34,958 nt of DNA, from positions 1-34,958 of the forward strand of contig CAZYVW010000001.1 in assembly GCA_964651645.1 (NCBI GenBank), written 5' to 3'. The stretch is from an uncultured Candidatus Saccharibacteria bacterium (GTDB lineage Bacteria > Patescibacteriota > Saccharimonadia > Saccharimonadales > CAZYVW01). Positions within the stretch are counted from its first letter, which is position 1, and every line of letters begins with the position of its first letter. The notes beneath the pieces were generated by a model. That model saw only the letters and a program-made list of their open reading frames with translations, was not told where the DNA came from and ran no database searches. This document shows positions 2,104 to 33,480 of the stretch, one piece after another. The position numbers and the translations under genes are program-made.

Positions 2104-3411
2104 TTAGCTTTTTGGTTTTTGAGACTGATTTGTACCTAGTGCTAGTCCAGCTAACGGCCACCACAACAGAGCTAGGGTATCATCCGCCCAGGCGTGCGAT
2201 ACCAAATTAATAAATGTCAGTCCGGCCAAGCTTGCTAATAGTGCAAGGGCCAATGGGTCACTTCTTCGTTTATAAAGCCCCAGGCCAACGAGTGCATTTA
2301 TACCAATGAATAAACCGAGCCCCAGCACGCCGCTTTCTTGGCCGACCTGCAAAAAGTAGTTCTCGGCAATCCTGACTCGGTTATCGTTTCTCACTGATGC
2401 CGGCCCAGCCGTGCCCGGGCCACGGCCCAAAGGTTCGTTAGCAACGTCCTTCACAGCATGTTCCAGGGCCGATGCTCTATCCGAGTTAGAGCTAGTCGAA
2501 GACGTAGACTTTTCACTACTATGAAAAACCACGTTCTGGAAACGGTCATTGTTTCTAAGCGCCAGTAAGCTACCAGCGCCGACAATCGCAATTACCGCAA
2601 ACCCGGTTAGTAACCAAGGGCGCAATCGGCTTGGCAAAGCCAGCCAAGCTAAACATAGCAGGCTAATGCCCAGACCAATATAGGCACTACGCGAGTAAGT
2701 GAAGAACAAGGTTATGCAGGCAAGAAGCCCAGCAACGGCAATTAGCCGCCGGCTTTTGACCTTTTGCCAGGTAACTGCCAGCGCCGACAGAACTAGGACT
2801 AGGTAGGCTCCAAGTGGATTGGGTCCACGTAAGGTGGCTTGCAGGCGAACAAAGTTTGGCCGTAAATCAACCGTTTGATAGGCCGGAATGGTTGCCGGGC
2901 CGTATCCAAAATGTCTCAAAAAATCCGCCGGTAGCAAAAAATGCTGCACCAGCCCAAAGACCACAACGGCAGCGGCCGGTAGCAGTAGTAGCTTTTGCCA
3001 GTGGGCCTTCAGCCAATTGTCTTTGAGCGACAGTGCGTAACAAACGGCAAAGATTACCAAGAACCGCAAACCATTTAACAGGCCGTAAATTAAGGCATTG
3101 GCATTGACGTCATGCCTTTTAAAAGCCACCGCTCCAAGTGCTAAATTAAGCCCAGCGTAAGCAATAATTAGTTTAATAATAAGATTGCCAAAAACGGACA
3201 AACGCCACTTCTTGTCTTTTAGTACTAGTAACAGCGCGACCAAGCTAATTGGGATTAATAACAGTTCCTTCCAGATTCTAAAAAGATCAAGGTGGCCATA
3301 GTTTGATCCCACCCAGGTGGTCAAAAGCGTGTGAAATGGCAAAAAAACCAAAATCGCTGCTACAAAATAGCTAATTAATTGTATTAGGTGGTTGTCTAAC
3401 TTCTTACCCAT
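2104..3411 (-). CDS. O-antigen ligase / Wzy_C family polytopic membrane protein
   Basis: 435 aa with at least 10 hydrophobic spans. It has the Wzy_C-like core FFTYSRSAYIGLGISLL followed by a hydrophilic loop (HSSEKSTSSTSSNSDRASALEH). Confidence 0.7.
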   Translation of the reverse strand: MGKKLDNHLIQLISYFVAAILVFLPFHTLLTTWVGSNYGHLDLFRIWKELLLIPISLVALLLVLKDKKWRLSVFGNLIIKLIIAYAGLNLALGAVAFKRHDVNANALIYGLLNGLRFLVIFAVCYALSLKDNWLKAHWQKLLLLPAAAVVVFGLVQHFLLPADFLRHFGYGPATIPAYQTVDLRPNFVRLQATLRGPNPLGAYLVLVLSALAVTWQKVKSRRLIAVAGLLACITLFFTYSRSAYIGLGISLLCLAWLALPSRLRPWLLTGFAVIAIVGAGSLLALRNNDRFQNVVFHSSEKSTSSTSSNSDRASALEHAVKDVANEPLGRGPGTAGPASVRNDNRVRIAENYFLQVGQESGVLGLGLFIGINALVGLGLYKRRSDPLALALLASLAGLTFINLVSHAWADDTLALLWWPLAGLALGTNQSQKPKS

Positions 3412-3413
3412 AA

Positions 3414-4853
3414 ATGCTACAATCTAGTATAGCCCTCATGAAGAACAACGTCTCGCTCTTATATAATTTTTTTCTAGTCGTAGGTGATTTTCTAGCCTTA
3501 ACTGCTGCTTTTGGCGGTGCATACGTACTCCGCGTAACTCTGGATGCCCGACCACTAGTAGAAGCAATCCCAGCCGTAACCTACTTAGGGGTTTTCCTAA
3601 CCTTACTACCATTTTGGATTATTATTTTTGCTCTACTCGGTCTCTACAATACTTCTATTTACGAGAAGCGCTTTGCAGAGCTAGGCCGGCTAATTGTCGG
3701 ATCGTTTATTGGTCTGCTATTTGTAGTTTTTATAGATTTTGTATTGCCGCGGGCTATTTTCCCGGCTCGTCTAGTGCCGCTTTACGGCTTTGGTCTGGCG
3801 CTAGTCTTTGTAGTTCTTTTCCGCAATATTGCCCGCATGGTCCGGTCGATACTTTTCAGTTATGGCATTGGGCTGACCCGTACTTTAATTGTTGGCGATA
3901 CCTCAGTTAGCAATGAGCTGATTGAGGCCTTTCGGGAGTCTTCTTCCGGTTATAAGGTTGTAGGTGTGGTCGGAACAAATCGTTGGCTCACCCATGTGCC
4001 AGTTTATAAAACTTTTGAGGGAGCCACAAAGGCCTTGAAGGACAAAACCTTGCATAGCATTATTCAGACTGAGCTTTATAGTACGCCCGAAAAAAACAAC
4101 TCTGTCCTAACGTACGCTCAGGAGAATCACGTGGCTTACCGCTTTATCCCGGGAAACACCGAGTTATTTGTGGGTAATATTGACGTTGAGCTATTTCGTT
4201 CGGCCATCCCAGTAATTGCCGTCCACCAAACCCCACTGCTTGGTTGGGGCCGGGTTGCCAAACGCGTTTTTGATATTATTGTGTCCAGTTTAGCCCTCGT
4301 TATATTGTCGCCATTGTTCGTACTTATTAGTCTGCTGATTATTATCTTTAGCCCCGGTAAAATTATTTTCCGCCAGCGGCGCCTAACACGCTTTGGCACA
4401 CCTTTTAAGATCTACAAATTCCGCACCACTAAACGCAAATACACTTGCTCGCCGGAGCGCGGCTTTAAGCTAATGGGCCGGCCAGACCTTCTAAAGTTAT
4501 ACCGGGAGAACGGCGATTACCTGCCGCATGATCCGCGCTTTACGCTCCTAGGGCGGCTGCTGCGCAAAACCAGTCTTGATGAACTGCCACAGCTAATTAA
4601 TGTGTTTAAAGGAGATCTGAGCCTGGTTGGTCCAAGAGCTTTGGTACCCGAGGAGATAAATATAGCGGAGGCTAAACACCATATCTTAAGTGTCAAAAGC
4701 GGTATTACGGGCTTGGCTCAGGTTTCCGGCCGTCGGGAAATTACCGTTGATGAACGTCGCAAGTTAGATTTGTATTACATCCAGAACTGGACGTTTTGGC
4801 TAGATATCACAATTATACTTAAGACCTTTAGGGCATTGATTACCCGCGGTTAA
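3414..4853 (+). CDS. polyprenyl-phosphate hexose-1-phosphate transferase (WbaP/CpsE-type initiating sugar transferase)
   Basis: The C-terminal Bac_transf domain is recognisable (KRVFDIIVSSLALVILSPLFVLISLLI, DELPQLINVFKGDLSLVGPRA, KSGITGLAQVSGR). N-terminal TM spans and a central Rossmann-like region precede it. The start is ambiguous between ATG 3414, only 2 nt from the divergent start at 3411, and ATG 3438 (MKNNVSLLY). Promoter geometry favours 3438. Confidence 0.85.
   Translation: MLQSSIALMKNNVSLLYNFFLVVGDFLALTAAFGGAYVLRVTLDARPLVEAIPAVTYLGVFLTLLPFWIIIFALLGLYNTSIYEKRFAELGRLIVGSFIGLLFVVFIDFVLPRAIFPARLVPLYGFGLALVFVVLFRNIARMVRSILFSYGIGLTRTLIVGDTSVSNELIEAFRESSSGYKVVGVVGTNRWLTHVPVYKTFEGATKALKDKTLHSIIQTELYSTPEKNNSVLTYAQENHVAYRFIPGNTELFVGNIDVELFRSAIPVIAVHQTPLLGWGRVAKRVFDIIVSSLALVILSPLFVLISLLIIIFSPGKIIFRQRRLTRFGTPFKIYKFRTTKRKYTCSPERGFKLMGRPDLLKLYRENGDYLPHDPRFTLLGRLLRKTSLDELPQLINVFKGDLSLVGPRALVPEEINIAEAKHHILSVKSGITGLAQVSGRREITVDERRKLDLYYIQNWTFWLDITIILKTFRALITRG
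3418..3431. promoter_or_regulatory. interdigitated divergent -10-like boxes between the ligase-like and sugar transferase genes
   Basis: On the plus strand, TACAAT lies at 3418-3423 and TAGTAT at 3425-3430, with 7 nt from TAGTAT to ATG 3438. On the minus strand, TATACT lies at 3431-3426, with 14 nt to ATG 3411. Confidence 0.35.
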
Positions 4854-4856
4854 ATC

Positions 4857-5960: not shown

Positions 5961-5963
5961 CGG

Positions 5964-6419: not shown

Positions 6420-6489
6420 TTGGTTCCTCAAATTTACTGCTCGTTTATGATATCAGATTTAGTATGAACGACTTACCAAAAACTATGTT

Positions 6490-6512
6490 TATAATAAGTA
6501 TGTCAAAAGGAG
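6490..6512 (+). promoter_or_regulatory. -10 TATAAT plus Shine-Dalgarno for the phosphohexomutase gene (a conventional leadered example)
   Basis: TATAAT lies at 6490-6495 and AAAGGAG at 6506-6512. Six nt follow the SD before TTG 6519. Confidence 0.45.
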
Positions 6513-6518
6513 AAAAAT

Positions 6519-8318
6519 TTGAAGGACATCCACCGCGACCTAATCGCCCACGCTAAACAACAAAACCTTTTGTCAGATGAAGCAGTTACTAATTTAAAGC
6601 TTTGGCTAGAAAACGAAGCCTTTTCCGATTTCCATGAAGAAATTGGCAAACTGATTGATGATGAAAATTGGGAGTTACTAGATGACTCTTTCTACTCTCG
6701 GGTGCGCGTGGGTACTGGTGGTATTAGGGGGCCAGTCGGGGCTGGACCAAACCGTATAAACACGCGGACAATTGGTGAGGCAGCTCAAGCACTTTCAAAT
6801 TTTATGCATGGGTTCGGCCCTGAGGCCGTAAAAGGTGGAATTGTTATTGGACACGAGGTAAGAAAATTCTCGCGGGAATTCGCAGAAAGATGTTGTGAGG
6901 TTTTTGCGGCCAACGGAATTAATTCTTATCTATTTAGTTCTTATAGAGCGACACCTGAGCTTTCGTTTGCCGTGCGACATCTAAAAGTAACGGCTGGAGT
7001 TCAGCTTACTGCATCGCACAACCCTCGCACTGATAACGGCTTCAAGTTTTACTGGTCTGATGGTGGCCAAGTTGTGCCGCCGCTTGATCAAAAATTTATG
7101 ACACTAGTTACAAACGTCACAGATATTAAACGCATGCCATTTAATGATGCCGTCAAGGACGGCTGGGTTCATGAGGTTGGCAAAGAAATTGACGATGAAT
7201 ACTTCAAGGCCGTAGAAAAACAAGCGTTGCGTCAGGCTCACTCCGCAAAGATTGCTTTTAGTCCAATGCACGGAGCTGGTTTGACTAATGTTCTGCCGGT
7301 TCTACAACATAAAGGATTTGATGTATCCGTTGTGCCGGAGCAAGAAAGGCCAGACGAAAACTTCCCGACGGCGCACGGCGACCTTATTAATCCTGAGTTT
7401 CCAGAAGTTATGAAAATGCCAATGGCGCTGGCCGAGAAAATTGGTGCAGATTTGGCAATAATGTCTGACCCAGATGCCGACCGCGTTGGTGTTGCTGTAA
7501 AAGAAAATTTAGCCAGCAACAAAATGCGCCAGCTGAGCGGCAACGAAGTAGGCATAGCCCTTACCTACTACGTTCTTTCAAGCCTTCGTGATCAGAAAAA
7601 GCTAAGACCAAGCAACTTAGTTATTGAAACGTACGTTACCAGTTCTTTAATATCTAAGGTCGCTAAGCACTTTAATGCCAAAGCTGTTGATGACCTACTC
7701 GTAGGTTTCAAGTTCATTGGTGAAATTATTACCAAGCTGGATGACTCTGAAGATTTTGCTTTTGCGGCCGAGGAAAGCCTTGGTTACTTACGCGGCGACT
7801 ATGCGCGTGACAAAGATGCCGCTGTAGCGGCAATGCTAATGGGCGAGCTATCCTCAACACTCAAAGACAAAGACCAGACGGTTGGTGATTACCTAAATAA
7901 TATTTATGAAGAACTTGGGTATTACAAAAACTTGCTCCTGCCGGCCGAACTTGGGAAAGGCCGGGTTGGTAAAGATAGAATAGTAACTACTATGCTGGGC
8001 CTGCGTGCTAAGCCACCTAAAGAATTGGCCGGCCTTCCGGTTCTTGAAATTATTGATTTACTCCCTGATGAATTAAAAAAGCCAGAAAATTACATAGCAG
8101 CCGCTACTGGTGACCAGATGACTTTTATACTTAGCAAAGACGGTTTGACAAGAGTAACTGCTCGTCCCTCTGGTACTGAGCCAATCATTAAGTTCTACAC
8201 TCAGCATTGGGCCGAGGTTGACGAAAGAGGGCTGGGAGCAACAAAAGCAGATATTGATAGCCAAGCTCAAGCAATTCAGGACTCAATCCAACAATATTCA
8301 GCTAAATTTATTTCCTAA
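6519..8318 (+). CDS. alpha-D-phosphohexomutase (PgcA-like phosphoglucomutase/phosphomannomutase)
   Basis: It has the catalytic-Ser loop TASHNPRTDNGFKFY, the metal loop SDPDADRVGV and the sugar-binding loop AAEESLGY. The start is TTG, with AAAGGAG at 6506-6512 six nt upstream. Confidence 0.85.
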   Translation: MKDIHRDLIAHAKQQNLLSDEAVTNLKLWLENEAFSDFHEEIGKLIDDENWELLDDSFYSRVRVGTGGIRGPVGAGPNRINTRTIGEAAQALSNFMHGFGPEAVKGGIVIGHEVRKFSREFAERCCEVFAANGINSYLFSSYRATPELSFAVRHLKVTAGVQLTASHNPRTDNGFKFYWSDGGQVVPPLDQKFMTLVTNVTDIKRMPFNDAVKDGWVHEVGKEIDDEYFKAVEKQALRQAHSAKIAFSPMHGAGLTNVLPVLQHKGFDVSVVPEQERPDENFPTAHGDLINPEFPEVMKMPMALAEKIGADLAIMSDPDADRVGVAVKENLASNKMRQLSGNEVGIALTYYVLSSLRDQKKLRPSNLVIETYVTSSLISKVAKHFNAKAVDDLLVGFKFIGEIITKLDDSEDFAFAAEESLGYLRGDYARDKDAAVAAMLMGELSSTLKDKDQTVGDYLNNIYEELGYYKNLLLPAELGKGRVGKDRIVTTMLGLRAKPPKELAGLPVLEIIDLLPDELKKPENYIAAATGDQMTFILSKDGLTRVTARPSGTEPIIKFYTQHWAEVDERGLGATKADIDSQAQAIQDSIQQYSAKFIS

Positions 8319-8335
8319 GTAATCTGTTAATTCAC

Positions 8336-8344
8336 TGATATACT
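8336..8344 (+). promoter_or_regulatory. extended -10 TGATATACT upstream of rfbB
   Basis: TG is at 8336-8337 and TATACT at 8339-8344. Eight nt follow before ATG 8353, and no SD is present. Confidence 0.4.
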
Positions 8345-8352
8345 AGAGTTAG

Positions 8353-9357
8353 ATGAAAATACTTGTTACTGGCGGCGCTGGATTTATTGGCTCTAATTTT
8401 GTTCATTATTTGCGCCAGCATTATCCTGACTACAAAATTGTCGTGGTTGATAAACTAAACCAGCAAGGCAATATTGAAAACCTGGCAAGCGTCCGCAGTG
8501 ATATTGAATTCCACGAGTTTGACCTAATAGAAGAACCCAAGCTAAAACCGATTTTTGAGGAGGGAGTGGATTATGTAGTTCACTTTGCGGCCGAGACTAA
8601 TGTTGATAGATCAATTGAAGACCCTGATAACTTTGTTAGCAGCAACGTGCTTGCGACCAACATTTTATTAAGGCTCAGCCGCGACTTTAAAGTTGAACGC
8701 TTCCATCACGTCTCAACCGACGAAGTCTTTGGCAGCCTAGAGTTGGACGACGACAGCAAATTTAACGAATCGACTCCGTACGACCCGCGCAGCCCCTACT
8801 CTGCCACCAAGGCCGCCAGCGACCACCTTGTGCGGTCTTATTTCCATACTTATGGTTTGGATGTCACCATTAGTAACTGTTCCAACAACTACGGCCCCTA
8901 CCAAGTCCCGGAAAATATTGTGCCCGTTTTTACACTGATGGCACTGCACGACAAGCCGCTGACTATCTACGGCGACGGCAAGAGCGTTAGGGATTATCTT
9001 TTTGTATTAGACCATTGCCGGGCGATTGATTTGATTCTTCATAAAGGCAAAGCCGGCGAGACTTATTGTATTGGCGGCGGCCAGGAAGAAAACGGCGTCC
9101 AAATTGCCAACGCTGTACTGAAAATTCTTGGCAAGCCAGAAAGCCTTAAAAAATTTGTGACCGACAGACCTGGCCACGACCGGCGCTACGCCATTGATTA
9201 CACTAAGCTAAAAACCGAACTTGGCTATGAGCCTAGTGTGACATTTGAAGAAGGTCTAAGGCAGACGATCAAATGGTATCAAGACAATGAAGCCTGGTGG
9301 CAGCCCTACATGGAAAAGTTTTATGTACCTAAATTTATGAAAAAGGATGTCTCCTAA
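8353..9357 (+). CDS. rfbB: dTDP-glucose 4,6-dehydratase
   Basis: MKILVTGGAGFIGSNFV, the STDEVFG motif, YSATKAASDHLVRSY (YxxxK) and DRPGHDRRYAID together match the RmlB pattern. Confidence 0.9.
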   Translation: MKILVTGGAGFIGSNFVHYLRQHYPDYKIVVVDKLNQQGNIENLASVRSDIEFHEFDLIEEPKLKPIFEEGVDYVVHFAAETNVDRSIEDPDNFVSSNVLATNILLRLSRDFKVERFHHVSTDEVFGSLELDDDSKFNESTPYDPRSPYSATKAASDHLVRSYFHTYGLDVTISNCSNNYGPYQVPENIVPVFTLMALHDKPLTIYGDGKSVRDYLFVLDHCRAIDLILHKGKAGETYCIGGGQEENGVQIANAVLKILGKPESLKKFVTDRPGHDRRYAIDYTKLKTELGYEPSVTFEEGLRQTIKWYQDNEAWWQPYMEKFYVPKFMKKDVS

Positions 9358-13707: not shown

Positions 13708-13715
13708 CCAAAAAA

Positions 13716-15307: not shown

Positions 15308-15318
15308 TATGGTAGCTA

Positions 15319-16074: not shown

Positions 16075-16164
16075 GGTGCAGTTCCTTTAAGATGTAAATA
16101 ATACCATATTTTACTGATAAAAACAATGTCTTGAGGCAGGGTGGCCAAAGTTACAGCCAAATCG

Positions 16165-16173
16165 TGATATTCT
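16165..16173 (+). promoter_or_regulatory. extended -10-like TGATATTCT, 7 nt upstream of ATG 16181
   Basis: The plus strand reads TGaTATTCT-tacatta-ATG. No SD is present. Confidence 0.35.
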
Positions 16174-16180
16174 TACATTA

Positions 16181-18010: not shown

Positions 18011-18011
18011 A

Positions 18012-18827: not shown

Positions 18828-18829
18828 GG

Positions 18830-20924: not shown

Positions 20925-21004
20925 ATCTTATACACTAGTATATACTAATAACGACACTTTAAGACGATTATTTCAATACCCTTGGAGCAAGAATTGCTTT
21001 AAAT

Positions 21005-21013
21005 GGTACAATC
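21005..21013 (+). promoter_or_regulatory. extended -10 TGGTACAAT upstream of the second GtrA gene
   Basis: TACAAT lies at 21008-21013. Seven nt downstream is an ATG (21021) that opens a 9-codon ORF ending at 21050, which is 5 nt before the GtrA ATG at 21056. Confidence 0.4.
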
Positions 21014-21055
21014 AGTCCCATGATTAAAACATTACGCGGCCTTTTATAGACAATC

Positions 21056-21478
21056 ATGGAAAAGCTTAAAAACTACGCGAACTATTTGTATAGACATAAC
21101 TTGGTGCGCTACCTTTTTGTCGGTGGGACTTCATTTGTTATTCTTTTTGGGGTGCAAGTATTCTTGCATGGAATCTTGGATGTTTGGCTACCGCTGGCAA
21201 CTTTTATAGCTTATTCAACATCAGTTATCTTCAATTTTACGGCTAATCGCCGATGGACTTTTAGTGCATCTGAAGCTAAAAGCCTAAAACAACATATTTT
21301 GCCTTATGCTGCTTTACTCAGTTTTAACTTGTTATTTAATGAGTTGTTTATCAATTTGGGGACACACTTCATCAACTATGCTGTTGCTACAGTACTGGCC
21401 GTTTTGATCCAGACAAGCTGGACGTATTTTATCTATAAAAACGTCATCTTCAATAAAAAAACGGAAGCCAAAGAATAA
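21056..21478 (+). CDS. GtrA family membrane protein
   Basis: 140 aa with four hydrophobic spans. GtrA motifs are present (LVRYLFVGGTSFVILFG, FNFTANRRWTF, WTYFIYKNVIF). Confidence 0.8.
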   Translation: MEKLKNYANYLYRHNLVRYLFVGGTSFVILFGVQVFLHGILDVWLPLATFIAYSTSVIFNFTANRRWTFSASEAKSLKQHILPYAALLSFNLLFNELFINLGTHFINYAVATVLAVLIQTSWTYFIYKNVIFNKKTEAKE

Positions 21479-21479
21479 A

Positions 21480-22907: not shown

Positions 22908-22971
22908 TAGCGTTACCACTAATACTACAGGTGTGCAGAAACCTTGCCAAGAAGCGTTTGGAGCCTAGAAG

Positions 22972-23709: not shown

Positions 23710-24911
23710 TAAATTATGCCGCCCTTGCCGTAGAAGTTCCAAATGTCTACCAGTTCCTTGCCGCCCCAATTGTCTTCTGCATAAATGCTGTGCGGCGTAG
23801 CCAGCACAATTGTGTCGGCGCGTTGACGAATTTCGTCCAGCGAAACAAACCGTGGATCTTTAATGAATGGGTCGTGGCAGAGGACTTCTTTGGCCTCAAA
23901 TTCTAAGCGCTTCTTTAGCTTGTAGGAAAGGCTTTCGCGCGGGTCATCATTATCACCCTTAAAGGCCATGCCTAAGATTGCAACGGTGCGACGGGTAAGG
24001 TCATAGCGCTTGCTCATTTTCTCAACGATGTAGTCTGGCAGGCCTTCGTTGACTAGCATGGCCGAGTGTCCAAGGAAAAAGTTGTTCTCACTAAAAGCCG
24101 AAAGTTGCATGGTGTCCTTAAACAAACATGGGCCAGCGGCTAGGCCAGCTTTAGCAAAAGATTTAAGCCGCGGATAGTCTTCTGTCATGGCGTTATAGAT
24201 CTTGTAAAAGTCTAGGTCATGACTGTTGGCAATCATGAAGAACTGGTTGGAAATAGCAAAGTTAATATAGCGCCAGGTGTTGGTAAATAATTTTGCCAAC
24301 TCGGCTTCCATGGGTTTAGTAACGATTATTTTTTTAGCTAAGACTTTGAAGACTTCGCTGGCTGCCTTGGTAGCTTCTTCCGTGCAGCCTCCAACTTGCT
24401 GCGGCAATTCATAAAGTTCCTTAAGAGCGTGCCCCTCAGCAATCCGTTCCGGACAGAAGGCTACTAGCGTCTTTTTGCCCTCTTTTTGCAGGTATTCGTA
24501 AACCTTGTCAGTTACGCCAGGAAACAGCGTGCTGCGCATAATCAGTAACTGATCGTCGCGGAGCTGGTTTTTAATTTGGGCTACGGCTTCAATAATTCCG
24601 GAAATCTTAGGGTTAAGGTGTTCGTCTACCGGCGTACCAATAACCATTATTACAGTTTTGGCTTTATTAATTACGCTTTTATCAGCTGAGGCTTTTAGGG
24701 TCTTACTCTTAATAACTTTTTTTAATAGCTGGTCGGCGTCGTTTTCTTTAAAGGGCATCTCAGCCTTATTAACTTTATCAACGGCTTTTTTATTTAAATC
24801 ATAAAGTACCACCTGTTTCCCTTGGTCGGCAAAAGCCATACCTAGGGGCAAACCAACGTGTCCACAGCCACCAACTATGCAAATATCAATGCCTCTACTG
24901 ACTTCAGCCAT
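23709..24911 (-). CDS. nucleotide-sugar 6-dehydrogenase (UDP-glucose/GDP-mannose dehydrogenase family)
   Basis: It has the N-terminal NAD loop ICIVGGCGHVGLPLGMAF and the catalytic-Cys context AAGPCLFKDT. The C-terminal domain reads ILGMAFKGDNDDPRES. AGGAG lies 5 nt upstream of the ATG. Confidence 0.85.
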   Translation of the reverse strand: MAEVSRGIDICIVGGCGHVGLPLGMAFADQGKQVVLYDLNKKAVDKVNKAEMPFKENDADQLLKKVIKSKTLKASADKSVINKAKTVIMVIGTPVDEHLNPKISGIIEAVAQIKNQLRDDQLLIMRSTLFPGVTDKVYEYLQKEGKKTLVAFCPERIAEGHALKELYELPQQVGGCTEEATKAASEVFKVLAKKIIVTKPMEAELAKLFTNTWRYINFAISNQFFMIANSHDLDFYKIYNAMTEDYPRLKSFAKAGLAAGPCLFKDTMQLSAFSENNFFLGHSAMLVNEGLPDYIVEKMSKRYDLTRRTVAILGMAFKGDNDDPRESLSYKLKKRLEFEAKEVLCHDPFIKDPRFVSLDEIRQRADTIVLATPHSIYAEDNWGGKELVDIWNFYGKGGII

Positions 24912-24966
24912 GTAAACTCCTAAACTTATTTGTTGTTTTTATAATATTACACTGTCTCCGTTATGC

Positions 24967-25536
24967 TCACAATGACATCCCCTGCAGGAAATCAGCAGCC
25001 TTTTGCATAGCCAAGTGATGATTGTAAGCAGAGACTTCTGGTATTTCGTCTAGGCCAATCCAGCGGAAGTCGGCCGCTTCATTCTGGGGGGAAAGCGAGC
25101 CGCCATATATATTAATAAGGTAAGTTAGAGCGATTGCATGCTTGCTAGGATCATAGCCACCTTCGGCATGATCGCGGTGGGCATACTCTGCTACATGGAC
25201 AGGCCGATCCGCAGCATTGCCACCATGGAAGTTAAAAGTTTCTACTCTTAAGTCGTTAAATAGGTGGCGGTGTATTGCATCAGCAATACCTTCGTCTTTT
25301 TTTATTCGGCCGCCCAGCATGGCTGGCTTTCCGGCTTCTGGCCCGGTGGCTCTAGTTATAATGCCAAGTCTTGGTTGGCGCCTGGTGTAGTCAACTGGTA
25401 GAAAGTCCACACATATTAGCGGCAGGTTTCGGACTACAAGCTCATACGCCGGCTCAGTCAAAAGCCCGTCTTTGTCATTAATTCCTTTTTTAGCAATAGC
25501 GTTAGCTAACGCTTTGTCAGATTCAACTCCGCTCAT
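24967..25536 (-). CDS. Nudix-fold-like protein with a degenerate Nudix box
   Basis: Residues 76-98 (GRIKKDEGIADAIHRHLFNDLRV) fit the spacing Gx5Ex7R.U, but the REUxEE glutamates read RHLFND. The overall size (189 aa) is typical of single-domain Nudix-like proteins. The call is tentative. Confidence 0.4.
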   Translation of the reverse strand: MSGVESDKALANAIAKKGINDKDGLLTEPAYELVVRNLPLICVDFLPVDYTRRQPRLGIITRATGPEAGKPAMLGGRIKKDEGIADAIHRHLFNDLRVETFNFHGGNAADRPVHVAEYAHRDHAEGGYDPSKHAIALTYLINIYGGSLSPQNEAADFRWIGLDEIPEVSAYNHHLAMQKAADFLQGMSL

Positions 25537-25543
25537 ATGCCAG

Positions 25544-25572
25544 ACAATAACATAAACATGCTACTATTTCAA
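25544..25572 (-). promoter_or_regulatory. sigma70-like promoter positioned for a leaderless transcript of the Nudix-like gene
   Basis: On the minus strand the order is TTGAAA (25572-25567), a 17-nt spacer ending in TGT, then TATTGT (25549-25544). Exactly 7 nt follow before ATG 25536. Confidence 0.5.
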
Positions 25573-25588
25573 GTTGCTGGCGACCTGT

Positions 25589-26908
25589 TTAATATCCGCC
25601 CCAACGGATTTGTTTTAAGTACTCAAGCCGTGCCTTAACCACTGTTGAATTAGGGTAAGTCAATAACAGGCAGCTCTCCGGTGGCGCGGCTAAGTGGCTG
25701 CACTGCTTTATGTTTTCTAGCTCGCGTTTGTGGCCGGCTGCACTGTGGATTCCCCAGGCGGCGTTGCTAAATAGCAGCAGTGTTGTCCCGGCTATTGCTC
25801 CGGACCATAACAGGTTTCTAAACCCAGTGCTTAACGGTTTTAGGATATCTTGACCCACAAAGCCGAAAGCAACAATTAAACTTATTGGCAGCAACATGGA
25901 AATAGTTGTATAACGGCTGCTATAGGCTTGGCTCAGCCCCAGACCCATCCTGGAAATTGCTGTAATCACCGAACTGCCCAGAGCGTATGTCCCCAGCGCA
26001 GTAAAAGGCAGCAGCTTGTTGAATGTTTGTTTACGGCGTAAGAACAAAAAAGTGTTTAGGCCTATAAAAGTAATCAGCAAAAAAGCGCCCGTAACCAGCG
26101 CCCCGGTGCGCAAGAAAGTCAGCGGCCGACCTAGATATATAAGTACGTACTTTATAAAAATAACGGGCTCCTTAAAAATCAGGGTTTTAGAGACGTAAGT
26201 TGCTGTGGTGTAGTGCCAAAAGTATGCGGTCGTGGCCAGCCCGCCTATAGCAACTGCTGGCAAATATTTTGCCGGACTAAGCCGCCGATAAACCAAGGCT
26301 ATAACTACTAACGGCCAGAGCAAGGTGCCGTTACCCAGCGAGAACTGAGCCAGCAGACCACCGACTATTATTAGCCCAAGTTGCTTCTGCGTTGAGTCTT
26401 TGGGTCGGCTTAGCGCATAAGCTACAATTACTGCGCCAAAGACATTTAGGAACCATTCCAGCTGCCAGCCCCACAACCAATTCTCAACTTGCACCGGCGA
26501 AAACCAGATTAGACTTAGTAACGCTGGCAGAAAAATTGGCAGGGTTTGCTCTAGATCTTTAGCTGTATTTTTAAGTAGTTTTAATAGCAGCCAAAAAGAC
26601 GCACTAGCGGCTGCCAGGCTAATAAAGCATTCAACTATCACATTCCAATGTGTCAAAAACGCTGAAGCCAGCAATATAATGTTTGGGATTAATATACGGT
26701 GTTCATTGTGCTGCTGCCAAACGTCGTGCCAGATAAAATGCCCAGCACGCAAATGCTGGAACATTGGCACTAGTTCCCACTGGTCTAAGTTCGGTGTATT
26801 AACCGTTTTGAAGATAATTAGCAGCCCGGCAACAACAATTGGAGCAAAAATCAGAGTCTGTGCTAAACGTAACTGAGCTCTTTTATCCCACATCTGTTTT
26901 AAAAACAT
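25589..26908 (-). CDS. polytopic membrane protein, candidate GT-C-type transferase
   Basis: 439 aa with at least 10 hydrophobic spans. The first extracytoplasmic loop carries acidic/His residues (DQWELVPMFQHLRAGHFIWHDVWQQHNEHR). No named family recognised. Confidence 0.55.
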   Translation of the reverse strand: MFLKQMWDKRAQLRLAQTLIFAPIVVAGLLIIFKTVNTPNLDQWELVPMFQHLRAGHFIWHDVWQQHNEHRILIPNIILLASAFLTHWNVIVECFISLAAASASFWLLLKLLKNTAKDLEQTLPIFLPALLSLIWFSPVQVENWLWGWQLEWFLNVFGAVIVAYALSRPKDSTQKQLGLIIVGGLLAQFSLGNGTLLWPLVVIALVYRRLSPAKYLPAVAIGGLATTAYFWHYTTATYVSKTLIFKEPVIFIKYVLIYLGRPLTFLRTGALVTGAFLLITFIGLNTFLFLRRKQTFNKLLPFTALGTYALGSSVITAISRMGLGLSQAYSSRYTTISMLLPISLIVAFGFVGQDILKPLSTGFRNLLWSGAIAGTTLLLFSNAAWGIHSAAGHKRELENIKQCSHLAAPPESCLLLTYPNSTVVKARLEYLKQIRWGGY

Positions 26909-26915
26909 CTTTAGA

Positions 26916-26921
26916 ATTGTA
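26916..26921 (-). promoter_or_regulatory. -10-like hexamer TACAAT, 7 nt upstream of ATG 26908
   Basis: The minus strand reads TACAAT-tctaaag-ATG. No SD is present. Confidence 0.4.
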
Positions 26922-26931
26922 GCATCAAGAG

Positions 26932-26937
26932 TATTCT
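26932..26937 (+). promoter_or_regulatory. -10-like hexamer TATTCT, 7 nt upstream of ATG 26945
   Basis: The plus strand reads TATTCT-tagagtt-ATG. No SD is present. Confidence 0.35.
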
Positions 26938-26944
26938 TAGAGTT

Positions 26945-27238
26945 ATGGAAAATAAACTAGTTAGACGCGTTGTTATAATTAAGCTTCATGACGATGTTAG
27001 CGAGCAGACAAAGAAAGACATTCTGCAGAAGTTAATGGCTTTGGGAGAGAGCCCTGATGTTAGGAATTGGCTGGTTAAAGAATCGCTTGATACCCGTAAG
27101 GGTCAAATTATTATTGAAGAAGGAATATTTGAGTCAGAAGCAGCAATTGAACGCTTCCGTTTGAGCCCAGAACACCAAACAGTTGGCAAGTATATGAGCC
27201 AGTTAGCCGACTGGTGGACGGCCGTCTTTTATGAATGA
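26945..27238 (+). CDS. Dabb (stress-responsive alpha/beta-barrel) domain protein
   Basis: 97 aa. The pattern RRVVIIKLHDDVSEQTKKDILQKLMAL...E.IFESEAAIERFRLSPEHQ is typical of the Dabb/ferredoxin-like dimeric barrel family. Confidence 0.6.
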   Translation: MENKLVRRVVIIKLHDDVSEQTKKDILQKLMALGESPDVRNWLVKESLDTRKGQIIIEEGIFESEAAIERFRLSPEHQTVGKYMSQLADWWTAVFYE

Positions 27239-28074
27239 TAAGTTCCTTGGGCTGGTATTATAAGCAGATGAAATTAACTACAGCTTCCGGCAAACCACTT
27301 AATCCGATTGGCATTGGCACTTGGGGAATTGTTGGCACTTGGGAAAAGACAACCGAGCATGAAGCAGAAGGTATTGAGGGTTTACGCTACTCCGTACAAA
27401 AGGGCCAAAACCACATAGATTCTGGCCAAATTTACGGCGGCGGCTATACCGATGAGTTTATTGGCAAAGCTATCAAAGGTTTAGAGCGCAAAGACCTCTT
27501 CATTGGCGATAAAGTTTGGGAAACCAACGTAGCGACCGGCAAAGTCCAGGAAGCCGCGAGCGAAATGCTTAAGAAGCTTGGCACCGATTATATTGACCTG
27601 CTCTATATCCACAAACCGTGGGACGATTTTCCTTGGCGCGAGGCCATCCCACAAATTGATGAGTTGATTGATAGGGGCGTTGTCCGCCAGTTTGGAGTTA
27701 GTAATTTTAACTTAGAGCAGCTACAAGAAGCTATGAAGCTATCTAAACACCCGGTGGCTGCTAATCAGCTTTACTACAACCTGCTACATAAACAAGAGGT
27801 TGATGATGCCATGCAAGCCTTTTGCAAAGAGCACGACATTCAGATAATTGCCTACCGTCCATTGGAACAAGGCAAAGTTTTAGAAAACGAAACCGTTAAG
27901 CAGATCGCCGCGGCCCATTCTGCCACACCTTCGCAGGTAGCCCTGGCCTGGTTAGTCGCCAAAGGCACATTAACCGTACCAATGGCAATTGATGAGACCT
28001 TTATTGACCAAAACCTGCGCTCACTGGAGTTGCAACTCACGCCGGAAGATATGGCCAAGCTGGACACCTTATAA
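27235..28074 (+). CDS. aldo/keto reductase
   Basis: IGIGTWG, IDSGQIYGGG, YIDLLYIHKP, RQFGVSNF and AYRPLEQG are AKR signature blocks. ATG 27235 overlaps the upstream stop (ATGA). An alternative start is ATG 27268 (MKLTTASGK). Confidence 0.85.
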   Translation: MISSLGWYYKQMKLTTASGKPLNPIGIGTWGIVGTWEKTTEHEAEGIEGLRYSVQKGQNHIDSGQIYGGGYTDEFIGKAIKGLERKDLFIGDKVWETNVATGKVQEAASEMLKKLGTDYIDLLYIHKPWDDFPWREAIPQIDELIDRGVVRQFGVSNFNLEQLQEAMKLSKHPVAANQLYYNLLHKQEVDDAMQAFCKEHDIQIIAYRPLEQGKVLENETVKQIAAAHSATPSQVALAWLVAKGTLTVPMAIDETFIDQNLRSLELQLTPEDMAKLDTL

Positions 28075-28081
28075 ATCGCTT

Positions 28082-28110
28082 TTGTTTAATCAACCCCTGA
28101 TTGTTATAAT
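28082..28110 (+). promoter_or_regulatory. sigma70-like promoter for the C-methyltransferase gene
   Basis: The -35 is TTGTTT (28082-28087) and the spacer is 17 nt. The extended -10 is TGTTATAAT (TG at 28102-28103, TATAAT at 28105-28110). Only 9 nt separate the -10 from GTG 28120, and no SD is present. Confidence 0.5.
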
Positions 28111-28119
28111 CATCCCGTT

Positions 28120-29325
28120 GTGATCGTTAAAGAATGTTTTTTATGTAAAAGTAAGAAGCTTTATAAAGTTATTGATCTGGGCTTTCACCCACTGGCCGAT
28201 ACTTTCCTTAAGGCTCCTCAGCTGGATGGACCGGAAACCCGCTATCCATTATTTGTTGTGGCCTGCAAAGACTGCGGCCATTTAATGAACGGCTACATTG
28301 TGCCAGCTAAAGCCCGTTACCAGGAAAACGAATACAGCTACGATTCTTCTAACTCACAAGTTTCAATAAACCACTTTGACGAATTTGCCCAAGAGGCCAT
28401 CAAGCTCGTTGGCGTTACTAAAGACGATTTGGTAGTAGATGTTGGCTCCAATGTTGGCACTTTTTTATCTAAGTTCCGTGAACATTCTGGCTGCAGCGTA
28501 ATCGGTATTGAGCCTTCGCACAACATTGCCGTACTAGCTAGAAAAAACGGTGTTAAAACTTTTGAAGAATTTTTTAACTCCAAAGCCATTAAGCAAATTA
28601 AGGAAACCTCCAAGGCCAAGTTGATTACCGGGACTAATGTTTATAACCACATTGAAGACCAAGCGTCTTTTGCCAAGGATGCAATCGACTTACTAACTCC
28701 AGACGGCATGATTGCTATAGAAACGCCTTACGCCGGCAAGCTGATCGATGAAACCTCTTTTGACACGATTTATTTAGAGCACGCCTCTTATTTCTTTGTA
28801 ACGTCGCTTAAAAAATTCTGGGGCAAGTATGGCTTTAAAATTAGCCATGTGGAGCTTAATGATTACATGAGTGACTCGATGCGCTTTTACTTAAGCCGCC
28901 AGTTACCAGAAAGCCCGGCCGTAGCTAAAATGATTAGAGACGAGGCCAAAAAGGGCTACTTTAAACCAAAAACTTACGAAGCCTTCATGGAGCGCACTGT
29001 GAAATTCAAAATGGATCTTATGAAAGAGCTTTACCAAATTAAAGCCAAAGGTGGTGTAGTTATTGGCATTGGCGCAGCAACTAAAGGCAACACCCTACTT
29101 AACTACTGCGGCATTGACAGCACACTACTGGAATACGTGACTGACGCTTCGCCATTAAAAGTCGGCAAGTTTACCCCAGGCTCGCACCTGCCGATCAAAC
29201 ACGACAAAGACATTGATAACAAGGTTGTGACGCACGGTTTGATTCTGCCATGGAATATTGGCGATTTTCTTAGTAAAAAACTTGGCTTCTTAGGCATCAA
29301 GTTCTTGGTCCCACACCTAAAGTAG
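28120..29325 (+). CDS. NDP-hexose C-methyltransferase-like protein (TylCIII-type architecture)
   Basis: It has an N-terminal four-Cys zinc ribbon (CFLCKSKKL...CKDCGH) and a class I SAM motif (VVDVGSNVGTF). The C-terminal domain ends in G.FLVP, as in sugar C-methyltransferases. The start is GTG, the only in-frame start that retains the zinc ribbon. Confidence 0.7.
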   Translation: MIVKECFLCKSKKLYKVIDLGFHPLADTFLKAPQLDGPETRYPLFVVACKDCGHLMNGYIVPAKARYQENEYSYDSSNSQVSINHFDEFAQEAIKLVGVTKDDLVVDVGSNVGTFLSKFREHSGCSVIGIEPSHNIAVLARKNGVKTFEEFFNSKAIKQIKETSKAKLITGTNVYNHIEDQASFAKDAIDLLTPDGMIAIETPYAGKLIDETSFDTIYLEHASYFFVTSLKKFWGKYGFKISHVELNDYMSDSMRFYLSRQLPESPAVAKMIRDEAKKGYFKPKTYEAFMERTVKFKMDLMKELYQIKAKGGVVIGIGAATKGNTLLNYCGIDSTLLEYVTDASPLKVGKFTPGSHLPIKHDKDIDNKVVTHGLILPWNIGDFLSKKLGFLGIKFLVPHLK

Positions 29326-29329
29326 CGCC

Positions 29330-30322
29330 CTAGCTAGTGTAGCGGTCTTTGTACCAGTCGTAGGTTTTAGTTAAACCTTGTTCTAGGGTAGTGTTGGCTT
29401 CCCAGCCAACAGCGTTTTTGATTTTAGAAACATCAGCCAGGCGGCGCTTAACGGATCCTTCTGGTGATTTTTGAATATCAAGTTTCTTAGGATGCCACTT
29501 ACTAATTTTAAACAGTGTTTCGGCAAGGTCTTTAATAACCGTTTCCTCGGTGGTACCAATGTGGTAGATTTCACCATCGGTCTTATTGGAAATCATAACT
29601 AGGCGCATGGCTTCTACGGCGTCTTGGATATAGCAGAACGAGCGCGTATCATCGGCGCCGTAAATTGGGAAGGGATCAGTTTTCTTAACGATCCGCTCAA
29701 TAAACTGCGGAATAACGTGGTTAAAGCCGGCCCGCGGACCATAAAAGTTGTGCGGCCGGACAATGACATTACGCATTTTGTAGCTAGTACCGTAGTGAAT
29801 AAACAGTTGCTCGCCAATGGCTTTGGTAGCCGCATACGTCCAGCGCGGATTTTTAACATCGGAAATAACTAATGGTACATCTTCGGGTGTTGGAATTGGC
29901 AGCTGGTTAAAAGCTTCTAGGGCGCCGGCGTAAGCCTCGTTAGACGAAGTAAACAGGTTTTTGCCCTTGGGGTTCTTGGTTCTAGCCCATTCCAGGCCAT
30001 AAATTGAAGCCAGCAGGTTAATCCGTAAAACTTCATGGGGGATTTTATAAAACAGGTCGGTGCCGTTAACGGCCGCTAAATGATAAACGTAGTCAAAGTT
30101 GCCTTTAATTTTGTTCCAGCCTTCTGGGCTAGTTAGGTCAATTTCCATTAACTTAACGTTCTTGGCTTTTAGTAGTTCTTTTAGGTCTGGGTCGTCTTTG
30201 CCACGGAAGAAATTATCTATCATCAGGACTTCATCACCCTGCTCAACGTGAAGACGCGAAAGATACAGGCCAATAAAGCCAGCGCCGCCGGTAATTAAAA
30301 CTTTGTTAGATTTGCCAGCCAT
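29330..30322 (-). CDS. extended-SDR NAD-dependent sugar epimerase/dehydratase/reductase
   Basis: KVLITGGAGFIGLYL, YHLAAV and YAATKAIGEQL (YxxxK) are present, along with RPHNFYGPR. Substrate specificity cannot be read from the sequence alone. Confidence 0.85.
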   Translation of the reverse strand: MAGKSNKVLITGGAGFIGLYLSRLHVEQGDEVLMIDNFFRGKDDPDLKELLKAKNVKLMEIDLTSPEGWNKIKGNFDYVYHLAAVNGTDLFYKIPHEVLRINLLASIYGLEWARTKNPKGKNLFTSSNEAYAGALEAFNQLPIPTPEDVPLVISDVKNPRWTYAATKAIGEQLFIHYGTSYKMRNVIVRPHNFYGPRAGFNHVIPQFIERIVKKTDPFPIYGADDTRSFCYIQDAVEAMRLVMISNKTDGEIYHIGTTEETVIKDLAETLFKISKWHPKKLDIQKSPEGSVKRRLADVSKIKNAVGWEANTTLEQGLTKTYDWYKDRYTS

Positions 30323-30332
30323 GTATCCGCAG

Positions 30333-30338
30333 ATTATA
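30333..30338 (-). promoter_or_regulatory. -10 hexamer TATAAT, 10 nt upstream of ATG 30322
   Basis: The minus strand reads TTTATAAT-ctgcggatac-ATG. No SD is present. Confidence 0.4.
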
Positions 30339-30426
30339 AACGCCGCATATCTCTATAGCAAGCCAGGAATTAAATTTATGGTATTGTATACGTAAAATAA
30401 TATTGCCTAAAGGGAGTCGCCGCACA

Positions 30427-31131
30427 ATGTCAAAGAAACTAAAGCTAGATAAGGCTAAAGCTCTAGAAAACCTAAAAAAATACACAGACCAAATGGCCAC
30501 GCAAAACGGCGGCGAGGACAAAGACTACGCGGCACTGCAGTACAGCTGGAACAAAGACATCCTAGAGCGATCTATGGACTATATCCCCAAAGAAGCTCAC
30601 AAATTAATTGGCATTGGTAGTTTCCAGGGGGCATTAGAGCTAGCCTTGGCGCCGTTTTTTGACCAAGTTTTCTGCGTGGATCATGAATCATTCTTGCCAG
30701 CCAAAACTCCAAAGAATGTCACATTCCACCAAGCCGATATTGACAGCGCTCATTGGCGGCTGCCGGATGACCAAGCGATGTTTGACGTTGCCTACTGCAT
30801 AGAAACTATTGAACATCTGCTGTGGTCGCCACTACCACTATTAAAGTGGATGCAGAGCTACTCCCATATTTCCGTAATCTCCACGCCCGATGATGCCGAG
30901 TGGCCTGCCATGAACATTCGCCCGTGGACCCGTTTCCAGAAATTTATTGATATTCCTCGGGCCAAGCGCCGCTTTAAAGGCAACCCCGAGCCGATGTTTC
31001 ATACCAAACAGTACGGACAAGCCGAGTTCATAGAAATGTTGGATTTTGTTGGCTTTAGAGTCTTGGAATTTTTTAGAACTGGTGAGGGGCATCACCAAAT
31101 GGTAGCTATCGTCCAGCCAAGGCATAAATAA
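30427..31131 (+). CDS. class I SAM-dependent methyltransferase
   Basis: Motif I-like LIGIGSFQGALELAL...CVDH and post-I/II FDVAYCIETIEHL are present. I prefer ATG 30427, which has GGGAG (30412-30416) 10 nt upstream. The track starts at TTG 30403. Confidence 0.6.
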   Translation: MSKKLKLDKAKALENLKKYTDQMATQNGGEDKDYAALQYSWNKDILERSMDYIPKEAHKLIGIGSFQGALELALAPFFDQVFCVDHESFLPAKTPKNVTFHQADIDSAHWRLPDDQAMFDVAYCIETIEHLLWSPLPLLKWMQSYSHISVISTPDDAEWPAMNIRPWTRFQKFIDIPRAKRRFKGNPEPMFHTKQYGQAEFIEMLDFVGFRVLEFFRTGEGHHQMVAIVQPRHK

Positions 31132-32828: not shown

Positions 32829-32880
32829 TGTCTGTACTTCCCCTAAGCTAGTTATTTCATACCTATAAGCTGGCAGTTCT

Positions 32881-32889
32881 TGGTACTAT
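32881..32889 (+). promoter_or_regulatory. extended -10-like TGGTACTAT, 6 nt upstream of ATG 32896
   Basis: The plus strand reads TGgTACTAT-atacgc-ATG. No SD is present. Confidence 0.35.
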
Positions 32890-32895
32890 ATACGC

Positions 32896-33480
32896 ATGGC
32901 ATTTAAGTTCCCCAAGTTTCGACGTCTGTCTGCCAAAAGCCGATTGCTTTTGGGCCTGCTTGTTATCGTGGTTGTAGCTAGCCTCTGGTACTGGCATAGT
33001 CACATTAAGAAGATAGTAGCCACCATCCCCACCAGCACTGCGGCGACTAGTCCAAGCACATCGACCCCTACTACAACTCCTTCTACTACCACCAACAGCA
33101 CACCTTCGCCTAGCCCTGCAAGCCCAGCGCCAAGCACTAAATCGGTTAGCCCAACACCTGCTACTAATCCTAATGCGACTTTGGTTGAGCCATACGGAAC
33201 GTTTGTCAGCAACCATGGCCAGGATTCGTCGCACCCAGCTGACTCTGAAGTCTCATATTGCACAACCACGCCGGGAGCAACTTGTTACATTGCATTTACC
33301 CAAAGCAATATAACCAAAAAACTACCAGTTCAAACAACTGACAGTTCTGGCTCAACTACCTGGAGATGGGACGTTAAAGCAGCCGGTTTGACCTCGGGCA
33401 AGTGGACGGTAACAGCCTATGCCTCTTTGGGCAATCAAACTAAAAGTACCGTGGATCAAATTAGTCTGGTCGTCCAGTAA
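32896..33480 (+). CDS. membrane-anchored Pro/Thr/Ser-rich protein with a small beta-rich C-terminal domain
   Basis: It has an N-terminal basic stretch plus a TM span (LLLGLLVIVVVASLWYW). A roughly 60-aa low-complexity P/T/S linker follows (TSTAATSPSTSTPTTTPSTTTNSTPSPSPASPAPS). The last 90 aa have alternating beta-like character (TTWRWDVKAAGLTSGKWTVTAYA). Confidence 0.6.
   Translation: MAFKFPKFRRLSAKSRLLLGLLVIVVVASLWYWHSHIKKIVATIPTSTAATSPSTSTPTTTPSTTTNSTPSPSPASPAPSTKSVSPTPATNPNATLVEPYGTFVSNHGQDSSHPADSEVSYCTTTPGATCYIAFTQSNITKKLPVQTTDSSGSTTWRWDVKAAGLTSGKWTVTAYASLGNQTKSTVDQISLVVQ

Follow-up and report, generated by a model that had tools for sequence, protein, structure and literature searches.

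Results

The DNA analysed here, which we call the window, is an entire contig of 34,958 bp (CAZYVW010000001.1, ~45% GC) from the metagenome-assembled genome (MAG) of an uncultured member of the Saccharimonadales, within the Patescibacteria or candidate phyla radiation (CPR); this MAG is represented by the window alone in all tests. LexA is encoded at its left end, and the window carries a polysaccharide/cell-envelope cluster encoding a Wzy-like ligase, a Bac_transf protein, glycosyltransferases, the rmlBCDA products, GtrA proteins, a UDP-glucose dehydrogenase and methyltransferases. Its RmlB falls into the same 90%-identity cluster as 'Candidatus Saccharimonadales' MAGs, and the top relatives of other window proteins, 50-70% identical, lie on Saccharimonadales or Patescibacteria contigs. 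A preliminary description of this sequence had pointed to -10-like hexamers of the form TAnnnT a few nucleotides ahead of the first start codon of transcription units, and had suggested that many of the mRNAs are leaderless. Here we evaluate that arrangement in the window, in related loci and in control taxa.

Each of the ten combinations of hexamer, spacer and start codon previously listed is present on direct reading of the sequence (Table 1, where N7, for example, denotes a spacer of 7 nt). At the mini-open reading frame (mini-ORF) the arrangement TACAAT-N7-ATG is as described and only the coordinate of the ATG, cited as 21021, was off by one (true position 21020-21022). The 6-10 nt spacers hold no Shine-Dalgarno (SD) sequence. 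An upstream TG, said to accompany several of the hexamers, makes an extended -10 at seven of the ten sites (8353, 16181, 21020, 25536, 26908, 28120 and 32896), and both -35 boxes reported at 17 nt are in place, to which we add a third ahead of the TATAAT of 30322. Together with an overlooked site, ATG 27268 of an aldo/keto reductase gene, this gives eleven verified sites with gaps of 6, 6, 7 (six sites), 8, 9 and 10 nt, ten of which open with ATG and one with GTG. A pyrimidine at -1 before an A is a preferred context for a transcription start site (TSS), and such a pyrimidine precedes the A of the ATG at four of the six N7 sites. The preliminary description assigned this geometry to most transcription units; the geometry holds, yet its share is about half (10-11 of ~19-21 units).

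The start positions are backed independently by public gene calls, Pfam domain boundaries and orthologue N-termini. ATG 16181 is the start in the public gene call, the 26945 product has its Pfam Dabb domain from residue 6 on, and the Methyltransf_13 zinc domain (Pfam) runs from residue 6 of the C-methyltransferase, so that no start later than GTG 28120 is possible. For the aldo/keto reductase, residue 13 of the short form is the first of the Pfam domain, and ATG 27268, rather than the 27235 of the longest ORF, is probably the true start. The divergent genes 26908 and 26945 are 36 bp apart and 3411 and 3438 are 26 bp apart, leaving no space for two leadered 5' untranslated regions (UTRs), an independent argument for leaders that are very short or lacking.

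Four genes had been set apart as SD-led comparators (6519, 16074, 24911 and 30427), and we find a clear SD at all four. Their -10-to-start gaps are 23, 23, 29 and 39 nt, respectively, and a transcription start ~7 nt past the -10 would make their leaders roughly 15-30 nt long. The orthologues of 24911 in three related loci (L099, L100 and L101) are likewise SD-led, as is the orthologue of 30427 in L100. The cytidylyltransferase gene of the window probably starts at GTG 6419, behind the SD GAGGAA, and not at TTG 6431, and several operon-internal genes of the window have no clear SD.

Table 1. Promoter and start-codon elements in the window. Spacers (N) run from the SD to the start codon where an SD is given and otherwise from the -10 box; hexamers within extended -10 boxes are given in parentheses.
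Feature	Positions	Strand	-35 box (distance to -10)	-10 box	SD	Spacer and start
rmlB promoter/start	8336..8355	+		TGaTATACT 8336-8344 (TATACT 8339-8344)		N8, ATG 8353
609-aa membrane protein start	16165..16183	+		TGaTATTCT 16165-16173 (TATTCT 16168-16173)		N7, ATG 16181
Mini-ORF and GtrA start	21004..21058	+		TGgTACAAT 21004-21012 (TACAAT 21007-21012)		N7, ATG 21020
DUF4916/NUDIX protein, full promoter	25534..25572	-	TTGAAA 25567-25572 (17 nt)	TGtTATTGT 25544-25552 (TATTGT 25544-25549)		N7, ATG 25536
Divergent 36-bp intergenic region, two -10 boxes	26906..26947	both				
26908 site		-		TGcTACAAT 26916-26924 (TACAAT 26916-26921)		N7, ATG 26908
Dabb-domain protein site		+		TATTCT 26932-26937		N7, ATG 26945
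Aldo/keto reductase site	27253..27270	+		TGgTATTAT 27253-27261		N6, ATG 27268
C-methyltransferase, full promoter	28082..28122	+	TTGTTT 28082-28087 (17 nt)	TGtTATAAT 28102-28110 (TATAAT 28105-28110)		N9, GTG 28120
NAD-dependent epimerase, full promoter	30320..30361	-	TTGCTA 30356-30361 (17 nt)	TATAAT 30333-30338		N10, ATG 30322
194-aa secreted/membrane protein	32881..32898	+		TGgTACTAT 32881-32889 (TACTAT 32884-32889)		N6, ATG 32896
Divergent promoter core, Wzy/Bac_transf	3409..3440	both		back-to-back -10 boxes		
3438, plus-strand -10		+		TGcTACAAT 3415-3423; TAGTAT 3425-3430 (preliminary description)		N14 (TGcTACAAT) or N7 (TAGTAT), ATG 3438
Wzy, minus-strand -10		-		TATACT 3426-3431		N14, ATG 3411
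FAD-oxidoreductase start	20922..20942	-		TATACT 20937-20942; TAGTGT 20932-20937		N12 (TATACT) or N7 (TAGTGT), ATG 20924
Possible internal promoter; hexamer contains the upstream gene's stop codon	15305..15323	-		TATAAT 15318-15323		N10, ATG 15307
SD-led	6490..6521	+		TATAAT 6490-6495	AAGGAG 6507-6512	N6, TTG 6519
SD-led	16072..16106	-		TGgTATTAT 16098-16106	AAGGAA 16082-16087	N7, ATG 16074
SD-led	24909..24946	-		TATTAT 24941-24946	TAGGAG 24917-24922	N5, ATG 24911
SD-led	30379..30429	+		TGgTATTGT 30379-30387	AGGGAG 30411-30416	N10, ATG 30427

To measure how often such an arrangement arises by chance, 19 first-gene starts in the window were fixed without recourse to -10 geometry, from longest ORFs, public gene calls, Pfam boundaries and orthologue N-termini, and their 60-nt upstream regions were subjected to 5000 dinucleotide-preserving shuffles. 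TANNNT stands at a gap of 6-10 nt ahead of 11 of the 19 starts, compared with 3.67±1.71 in the shuffles (maximum 10; none of the 5000 reaches 11). The extended -10, TGNTANNNT, occurs at these gaps at 6 of the 19 starts where 0.20 are expected, a count reached in 0/5000 shuffles, and a gap of exactly 7 nt is seen at 6/19 against 0.75 in shuffles (P=2e-4). The operon-internal genes of the window have no -10 match at gaps of 6-9 nt, and one of them (15307) has TATAAT at N10.

We extended the analysis to relatives fetched via PGM, FAD-oxidoreductase, RmlB and 439-aa membrane proteins, giving a lineage set of the window plus 31 non-redundant Saccharimonadales loci (L numbers throughout) that spans 460 kb and contains 212 first-in-unit ORFs. 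ORFs were called by a simple longest-ORF procedure; a histogram built from longest-ORF starts alone showed a weak, noisy peak and was replaced by a scan of all candidate starts within the first 30 codons, checked against control taxa. The preliminary description had proposed plotting the distance from -10 match to start codon, and this distance peaks sharply at 6-9 nt in both the window and the 460 kb of related DNA, relative to shuffles and to other gaps. With the expectation computed from gaps 12-40, TGNTANNNT precedes a candidate ATG by 6-9 nt 29 times where 4.8 are expected (P=7e-14), with 10, 10, 4 and 5 matches at gaps of 6, 7, 8 and 9 nt and a total of 2 at gaps 0-5; orthologous hits among these matches are not fully independent of each other, though the matches are spread over 16 unrelated protein families. 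Anchoring the count on the promoter gives the same picture: behind 288 extended -10 motifs lying outside ORF cores, an ATG that opens at least 100 codons occurs 12, 12, 7 and 7 times at gaps of 6, 7, 8 and 9 nt, against a background of ~1.7 per position on average at gaps 10-30. Neither the window nor the lineage histogram shows an excess at gaps 20-30 or a significant excess for the class at N12-14. For internal genes, the related loci give slightly more matches than expected (6 vs ~1), in part owing to borderline intergenic distances and to -10 boxes that overlap the stop of the gene before. Several MAG contigs titled 'uncultured Gammaproteobacteria' (L001, L002, L005, L014, L016, L019, L030 and L045) rank with the nearest relatives of the phosphoglucomutase (PGM) of the window, mixed among Saccharibacteria/Patescibacteria records, and these taxonomic labels look doubtful.

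The same procedure was applied to control taxa. The peak is absent from 392 kb of Dehalococcoidia/Chloroflexi DNA and from 194 kb of distant RmlB-homologue and Firmicutes loci; therefore, the procedure does not create the signal by itself. The peak is present in other classes of Patescibacteria (22 vs 9.4, P=3e-4) and weakly present in a lower-GC mixed Saccharibacteria-like set. As read from these sequences, the geometry is a property of the Saccharimonadales lineage and not of this contig alone, and it probably extends to other Patescibacteria.

Comparison of orthologues indicates that the putative -10 keeps its distance from the start codon while the letters of the spacer change, as is the case for rmlB, 32896, 16181, 30322 and 28120. 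Among 24 distinct upstream regions orthologous to that of rmlB, 13 have a -10 at N6-10, 12 of these without an SD, and the spacers differ (agagttag, ataggcat, ttagggaca, agtagat, acaagc and others). Seven of the 24 have a strong SD (AAGGAG, AAGAGGA or GGAGG) and no -10, and only one has both features, so the two are nearly exclusive (Fisher P=0.008); several of the SD-led upstream regions are recognisably the tail of a gene on the same strand. SD-led and -10-led forms of one gene thus alternate between relatives, which confirms the earlier proposal of two coexisting initiation modes. The cytidylyltransferase gene, SD-led in the window, is -10-led in relatives (TGtTACAAT-N6 in L059 and TGaTATAAT-N7 in L063). 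For 30322, the orthologue in L099 has TGtTACTAT-N6-ATG and that in L100 is operon-internal with AAGGAG; likewise the aldo/keto reductase orthologue in L099 has TGtTATTAT-N7-ATG and the same MKL.T N-terminus, and that in L100 is operon-internal with AGGAGG.

Orthologues of 32896 carry TAAAAT-N6 in L099 and L101, TGcTAAAAT-N6 in L100 and TGtTAAAAT-N9 in L050. The 16181 orthologue in L047 retains 'atcgtgNtattcttacattaATG' (N7) and differs further upstream, and the 28120 orthologue in L100 has TGgTATACT-N10-ATG. Ahead of the 25536 orthologues lie TG-extended, AT-rich hexamers that are off consensus (TGaTATAAC-N6-GTG in L099 and TGaTTAAAT-N7-ATG in L100). A -10-like hexamer at N7-9 precedes a ManC-like gene, one that the window does not have, in 5/5 loci, with the extended TG in four.

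A second, longer spacing recurs at a smaller group of starts. A -10 box 12-14 nt ahead of the ATG is found in the window at 3411, 3438, 20924 and 22907, in L099 (10001) and L100 (4471), and in Wzy and FAD-oxidoreductase orthologues, a distance that predicts SD-less leaders of 5-8 nt. For the FAD-oxidoreductase gene (20924), the window, L048 and L047 share TATATACT at N12-14, the conserved box being TATACT and not the TAGTGT at N7; this spacing predicts an SD-less leader of 5-7 nt and not a strictly leaderless mRNA. Between the divergent Wzy_C and Bac_transf genes, a core of ~20 bp, TGNTACAATNTAGTATAGC (window 3415-3433), is conserved in L049, L050/L051, L053 and L054. Within it the distance from TATACT to the Wzy ATG is constant at 13-14 nt in five loci, and that from TGcTACAAT to the Bac_transf ATG varies, from N14 in the window to N8, N25, N40 and N52 in relatives. 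The preliminary description had chosen 3438 over 3414 and had assigned TAGTAT as its -10. The choice of start stands against the public gene call, 3414, orthologues beginning MKNN[AV]SL, whereas we reject TAGTAT as the primary -10, since it is the reverse complement of the Wzy TATACT, which explains its conservation. Site 3438 is thus ambiguous at best, and a leader of ~7 nt is more likely. The predicted start points of the Wzy and Bac_transf promoters are only ~11 bp apart, so that the two divergent promoters probably compete for RNA polymerase.

The ATG at 21020 opens a mini-ORF of 9 codons (MIKTLRGLL*) with a TAG stop at 21047-21049, followed by the SD-less GtrA ATG 21056. This ATG may be translated as an upstream ORF (uORF) that stops 6 nt before the GtrA start, and reinitiation could deliver ribosomes to GtrA; this proposal is speculative and concerns a single case in the window, with one analogous case in L062. 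There, TGcTATTAT-N7-ATG at ~18663 (+) begins a mini-ORF of 12 codons, and its stop and the following start overlap in TAATG. GtrA orthologues start at the residue matching 21056 and are operon-internal, and they show no comparable orthologue of the 21020 mini-ORF. Across the lineage, mini-ORFs are not clearly enriched behind extended -10 motifs, with 9 at gap 8 vs ~3 per position and no coherent peak.

In places the -10 box takes in the stop codon of the preceding gene, with the next ATG 7-10 nt further on; this is so in the window ahead of 15307 and, as TGNTAAAAT, at the end of rmlA in L063 (~9124) and L075 (~13285). These boxes may be internal leaderless promoters inside operons. The orthologue of 15307 in L047, first in its unit, has TATAAT-N9-ATG, and that in L048 has a 27-nt leader with an SD.

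Two features lie at the ends of the window. An AdoCbl-II (cobalamin) riboswitch at 1020-1079 (-) (Rfam RF01689, 41.1 bits) precedes an ORF at 3-1019 (-), which runs off the left end of the contig and whose 339 visible residues have no Pfam match. At the other end, a gene for an FG-GAP-repeat protein (33480-34958, +) runs off the contig; its ATG at 33480 shares bases with the stop of 32896 (TAATG), and a 124-aa minus-strand ORF at 34386-34760 is its antisense shadow.

Discussion

In this study, we examined the short distance that separates -10-like hexamers from the start codons of first genes on a Saccharimonadales contig and its relatives. The reading that best accounts for it, and one that we consider likely, is that many of these genes are transcribed as mRNAs that are leaderless or have leaders of at most 4 nt, alongside genes that are SD-led. 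The peak at 6-9 nt, its absence from the control taxa, the conservation of the distance among orthologues and the alternation with SD sequences all argue for the leaderless interpretation put forward in the preliminary description, and from this pattern we infer the position of the transcription start and the mode of ribosome loading.

The hexamers would be the -10 elements of housekeeping-sigma promoters, most of them extended (TGnTAnnnT) and three with a -35 at 17 nt. A multi-species analysis that used, among others, 188 RNA-seq-derived TSSs of TM7x places the centre of the TSS distribution 7 bp past the -10 (PMC12641261), and because the start point lies at about this distance, a gap of 6-8 nt would place +1 on the A of the ATG. 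RNA polymerase would begin on the first base of the start codon (A or G) or no more than ~4 nt ahead of it, and an mRNA that starts on or near its start codon has no room for an SD. Translation would then follow the leaderless route, in which, by analogy with mycobacteria, the ribosome binds the 5'-terminal AUG or GUG directly. Operon-internal genes and a minority of first genes would use a normal SD with leaders of ~15-30 nt, and a gene would switch mode as its position in the operon changes in evolution.

Several observations weigh against this interpretation or limit its reach. The conserved -10 of 3438 lies at N14, and the leaders of its orthologues would reach ~45 nt. Orthologues of 26908 have an extended -10 at N14 (L099) and N13 (L100), so the N7 spacing of the window is not conserved. 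The sites at N9-N10 (28120 and 30322) may have leaders of 1-4 nt, and 28120 uses GTG, which works poorly as a 5'-terminal codon in E. coli. A generic -35/-10 consensus scan of the window was not enriched over shuffles, so that the support comes from the -10 and extended -10 elements; such a scan is uninformative for promoters that depend on an extended -10. The related loci are largely polysaccharide-biosynthesis clusters rather than genome-wide samples, since they were fetched through such genes. Lastly, we found no 5'-end analysis in the literature for any Saccharibacteria, and a preprint on the TM7x transcriptome analyses neither TSSs nor UTRs.

One alternative is that the promoters are real and that the mRNAs carry very short SD-less leaders (~5-10 nt), translated by an SD-independent, leadered route. 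The boxes at N12-14 ahead of 3411, 3438 (TGcTACAAT), 20924 and 22907 fit this explanation, as does the conservation of that spacing (N13-14 in five Wzy loci, N12-14 in three FAD-oxidoreductase loci and N13-14 in the 26908 orthologues), and the sites at N9-10 could give leaders of 2-4 nt. Yet the matches peak at 6-9 nt across the lineage and show no significant excess at 12-14, and with a gap of 6-8 nt transcription would ordinarily begin on the start codon. In addition, mycobacterial TSS studies count leaders of 0-5 nt operationally as leaderless. As a general account of the geometry, short leaders are therefore improbable in our judgement, whereas for the N12-14 group and 3438 they are plausible.

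It could also be argued that TAnnnT belongs to an AT-rich, unstructured, non-SD translation-initiation region, like the non-SD motif of Bacteroidetes (GeneMarkS-2 group B), and that the mRNAs begin at more distant upstream sites. The upstream regions are AT-rich and several internal genes here lack a clear SD, as this explanation would have it. Against it, the hexamer is largely limited to first genes, with none at gaps of 6-9 nt before the internal genes of the window, whereas a group B motif by definition precedes internal genes too (PMC6028130). The TG of an extended -10 is in exact register, a -35 lies 17 nt from the hexamer at three sites, there are nearly no matches at gaps 0-5, and the hexamer alternates with genuine SD sequences in orthologues, all of which makes this explanation very unlikely. 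That the hexamers are chance matches in AT-rich intergenic DNA, picked post hoc and perhaps through wrong start codons, is hardly credible: TANNNT is loose (3.7/19 at gaps 6-10 in shuffles) and 3438 was chosen partly from geometry, yet no shuffle out of 5000 reaches the observed counts, the lineage-wide excess spans 16 families, the negative controls are clean and the start codons have independent support.

If leaderless or nearly leaderless mRNAs are as frequent as we propose, the annotation of CPR MAGs would change; in the window, 3438 would replace 3414, 27268 would replace 27235 and 22907 would possibly replace 22919. For genetic tools in Saccharibacteria, TGnTAnnnT placed 6-8 nt before an ATG may suffice as an expression signal. 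A deep-branching, genome-reduced lineage would also join the debate on whether leaderless initiation is ancestral. Whether the Patescibacteria/CPR as a whole rely heavily on leaderless mRNAs is a more tentative matter, and we regard it as possible but rather doubtful. Were it so, many gene starts in thousands of CPR MAGs would need re-evaluation under a leaderless model. Cultivated Saccharibacteria live on Actinobacteria, and under a CPR-wide trait ultrasmall epibionts with reduced ribosomes would share their signals (TANNNT-only promoters and a 5'-terminal AUG) with leaderless-rich Actinobacteria, which could make gene flow easier or be a sign of shared descent within Terrabacteria. None of these results overturns current understanding.

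Leaderless initiation is a known mode, and its putative use in Saccharimonadales, which we did not find reported, would not surprise a specialist. Our search found no statement in the literature that CPR, Patescibacteria or Saccharibacteria use leaderless mRNAs, only incidental mentions, the GeneMarkS-2 genome lists lying outside that search; the nearest item is that some Parcubacteria have no anti-SD motif (PMC9297842). In mycobacteria, a 5'-terminal ATG or GTG is necessary and sufficient for translation (Shell et al. 2015, PMC4633059). That leaderless transcriptome, which includes uORFs and small proteins, would accommodate GTG 28120 and predicts translation of the 21020 uORF, the case here being drawn from sequence.

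Other arrangements resemble the present one in part. In GeneMarkS-2 group B (mainly Bacteroidetes, or the Fibrobacteres-Chlorobi-Bacteroidetes (FCB) group), as here, many SD-less genes have an AT-rich motif near position -10 relative to the start codon. There the motif also precedes internal genes and cannot be a promoter, whereas here it stands mostly before first genes, with TG or -35 elements and with SD sequences at internal genes, and so does not precede first and internal genes alike. Archaeal group D shares a promoter at a fixed distance from the first-gene start; its TATA box lies ~26 nt upstream, whereas here a bacterial -10 lies at 6-10 nt amid bacterial proteins and context, which sets the window apart from that group.

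The closest parallels are the TA-led genes and group C. Zheng et al. (2011) described TANNNT ~10-12 bp upstream of the start and leaderless genes exceeding 20% in Actinobacteria and Deinococcus-Thermus, with orthologues that change initiation mode as they diverge (PMC3160421), and orthologues here likewise switch mode with phylogenetic distance. In GeneMarkS-2 group C, 25-50% of operons have a Pribnow box separated from the start by 6-8 nt (Lomsadze et al. 2018, PMC6028130). Unlike the TA-led sets, the present case comes from Saccharimonadales DNA of ~45% GC, a lineage not in the group table of Zheng et al. The arrangement is otherwise like that of the TA-led and group C genes, with TANNNT 6-8(-10) nt before first genes that lack an SD, SD sequences elsewhere and a share of ~25-50% of operons. 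In high-GC actinobacteria the element is a bare TANNNT, whereas the hexamer here is informative at its middle positions (TAtaaT-like) and very often carries the extended TG. Altogether, every defining feature of group C leaderless genes that sequence can address is found here.

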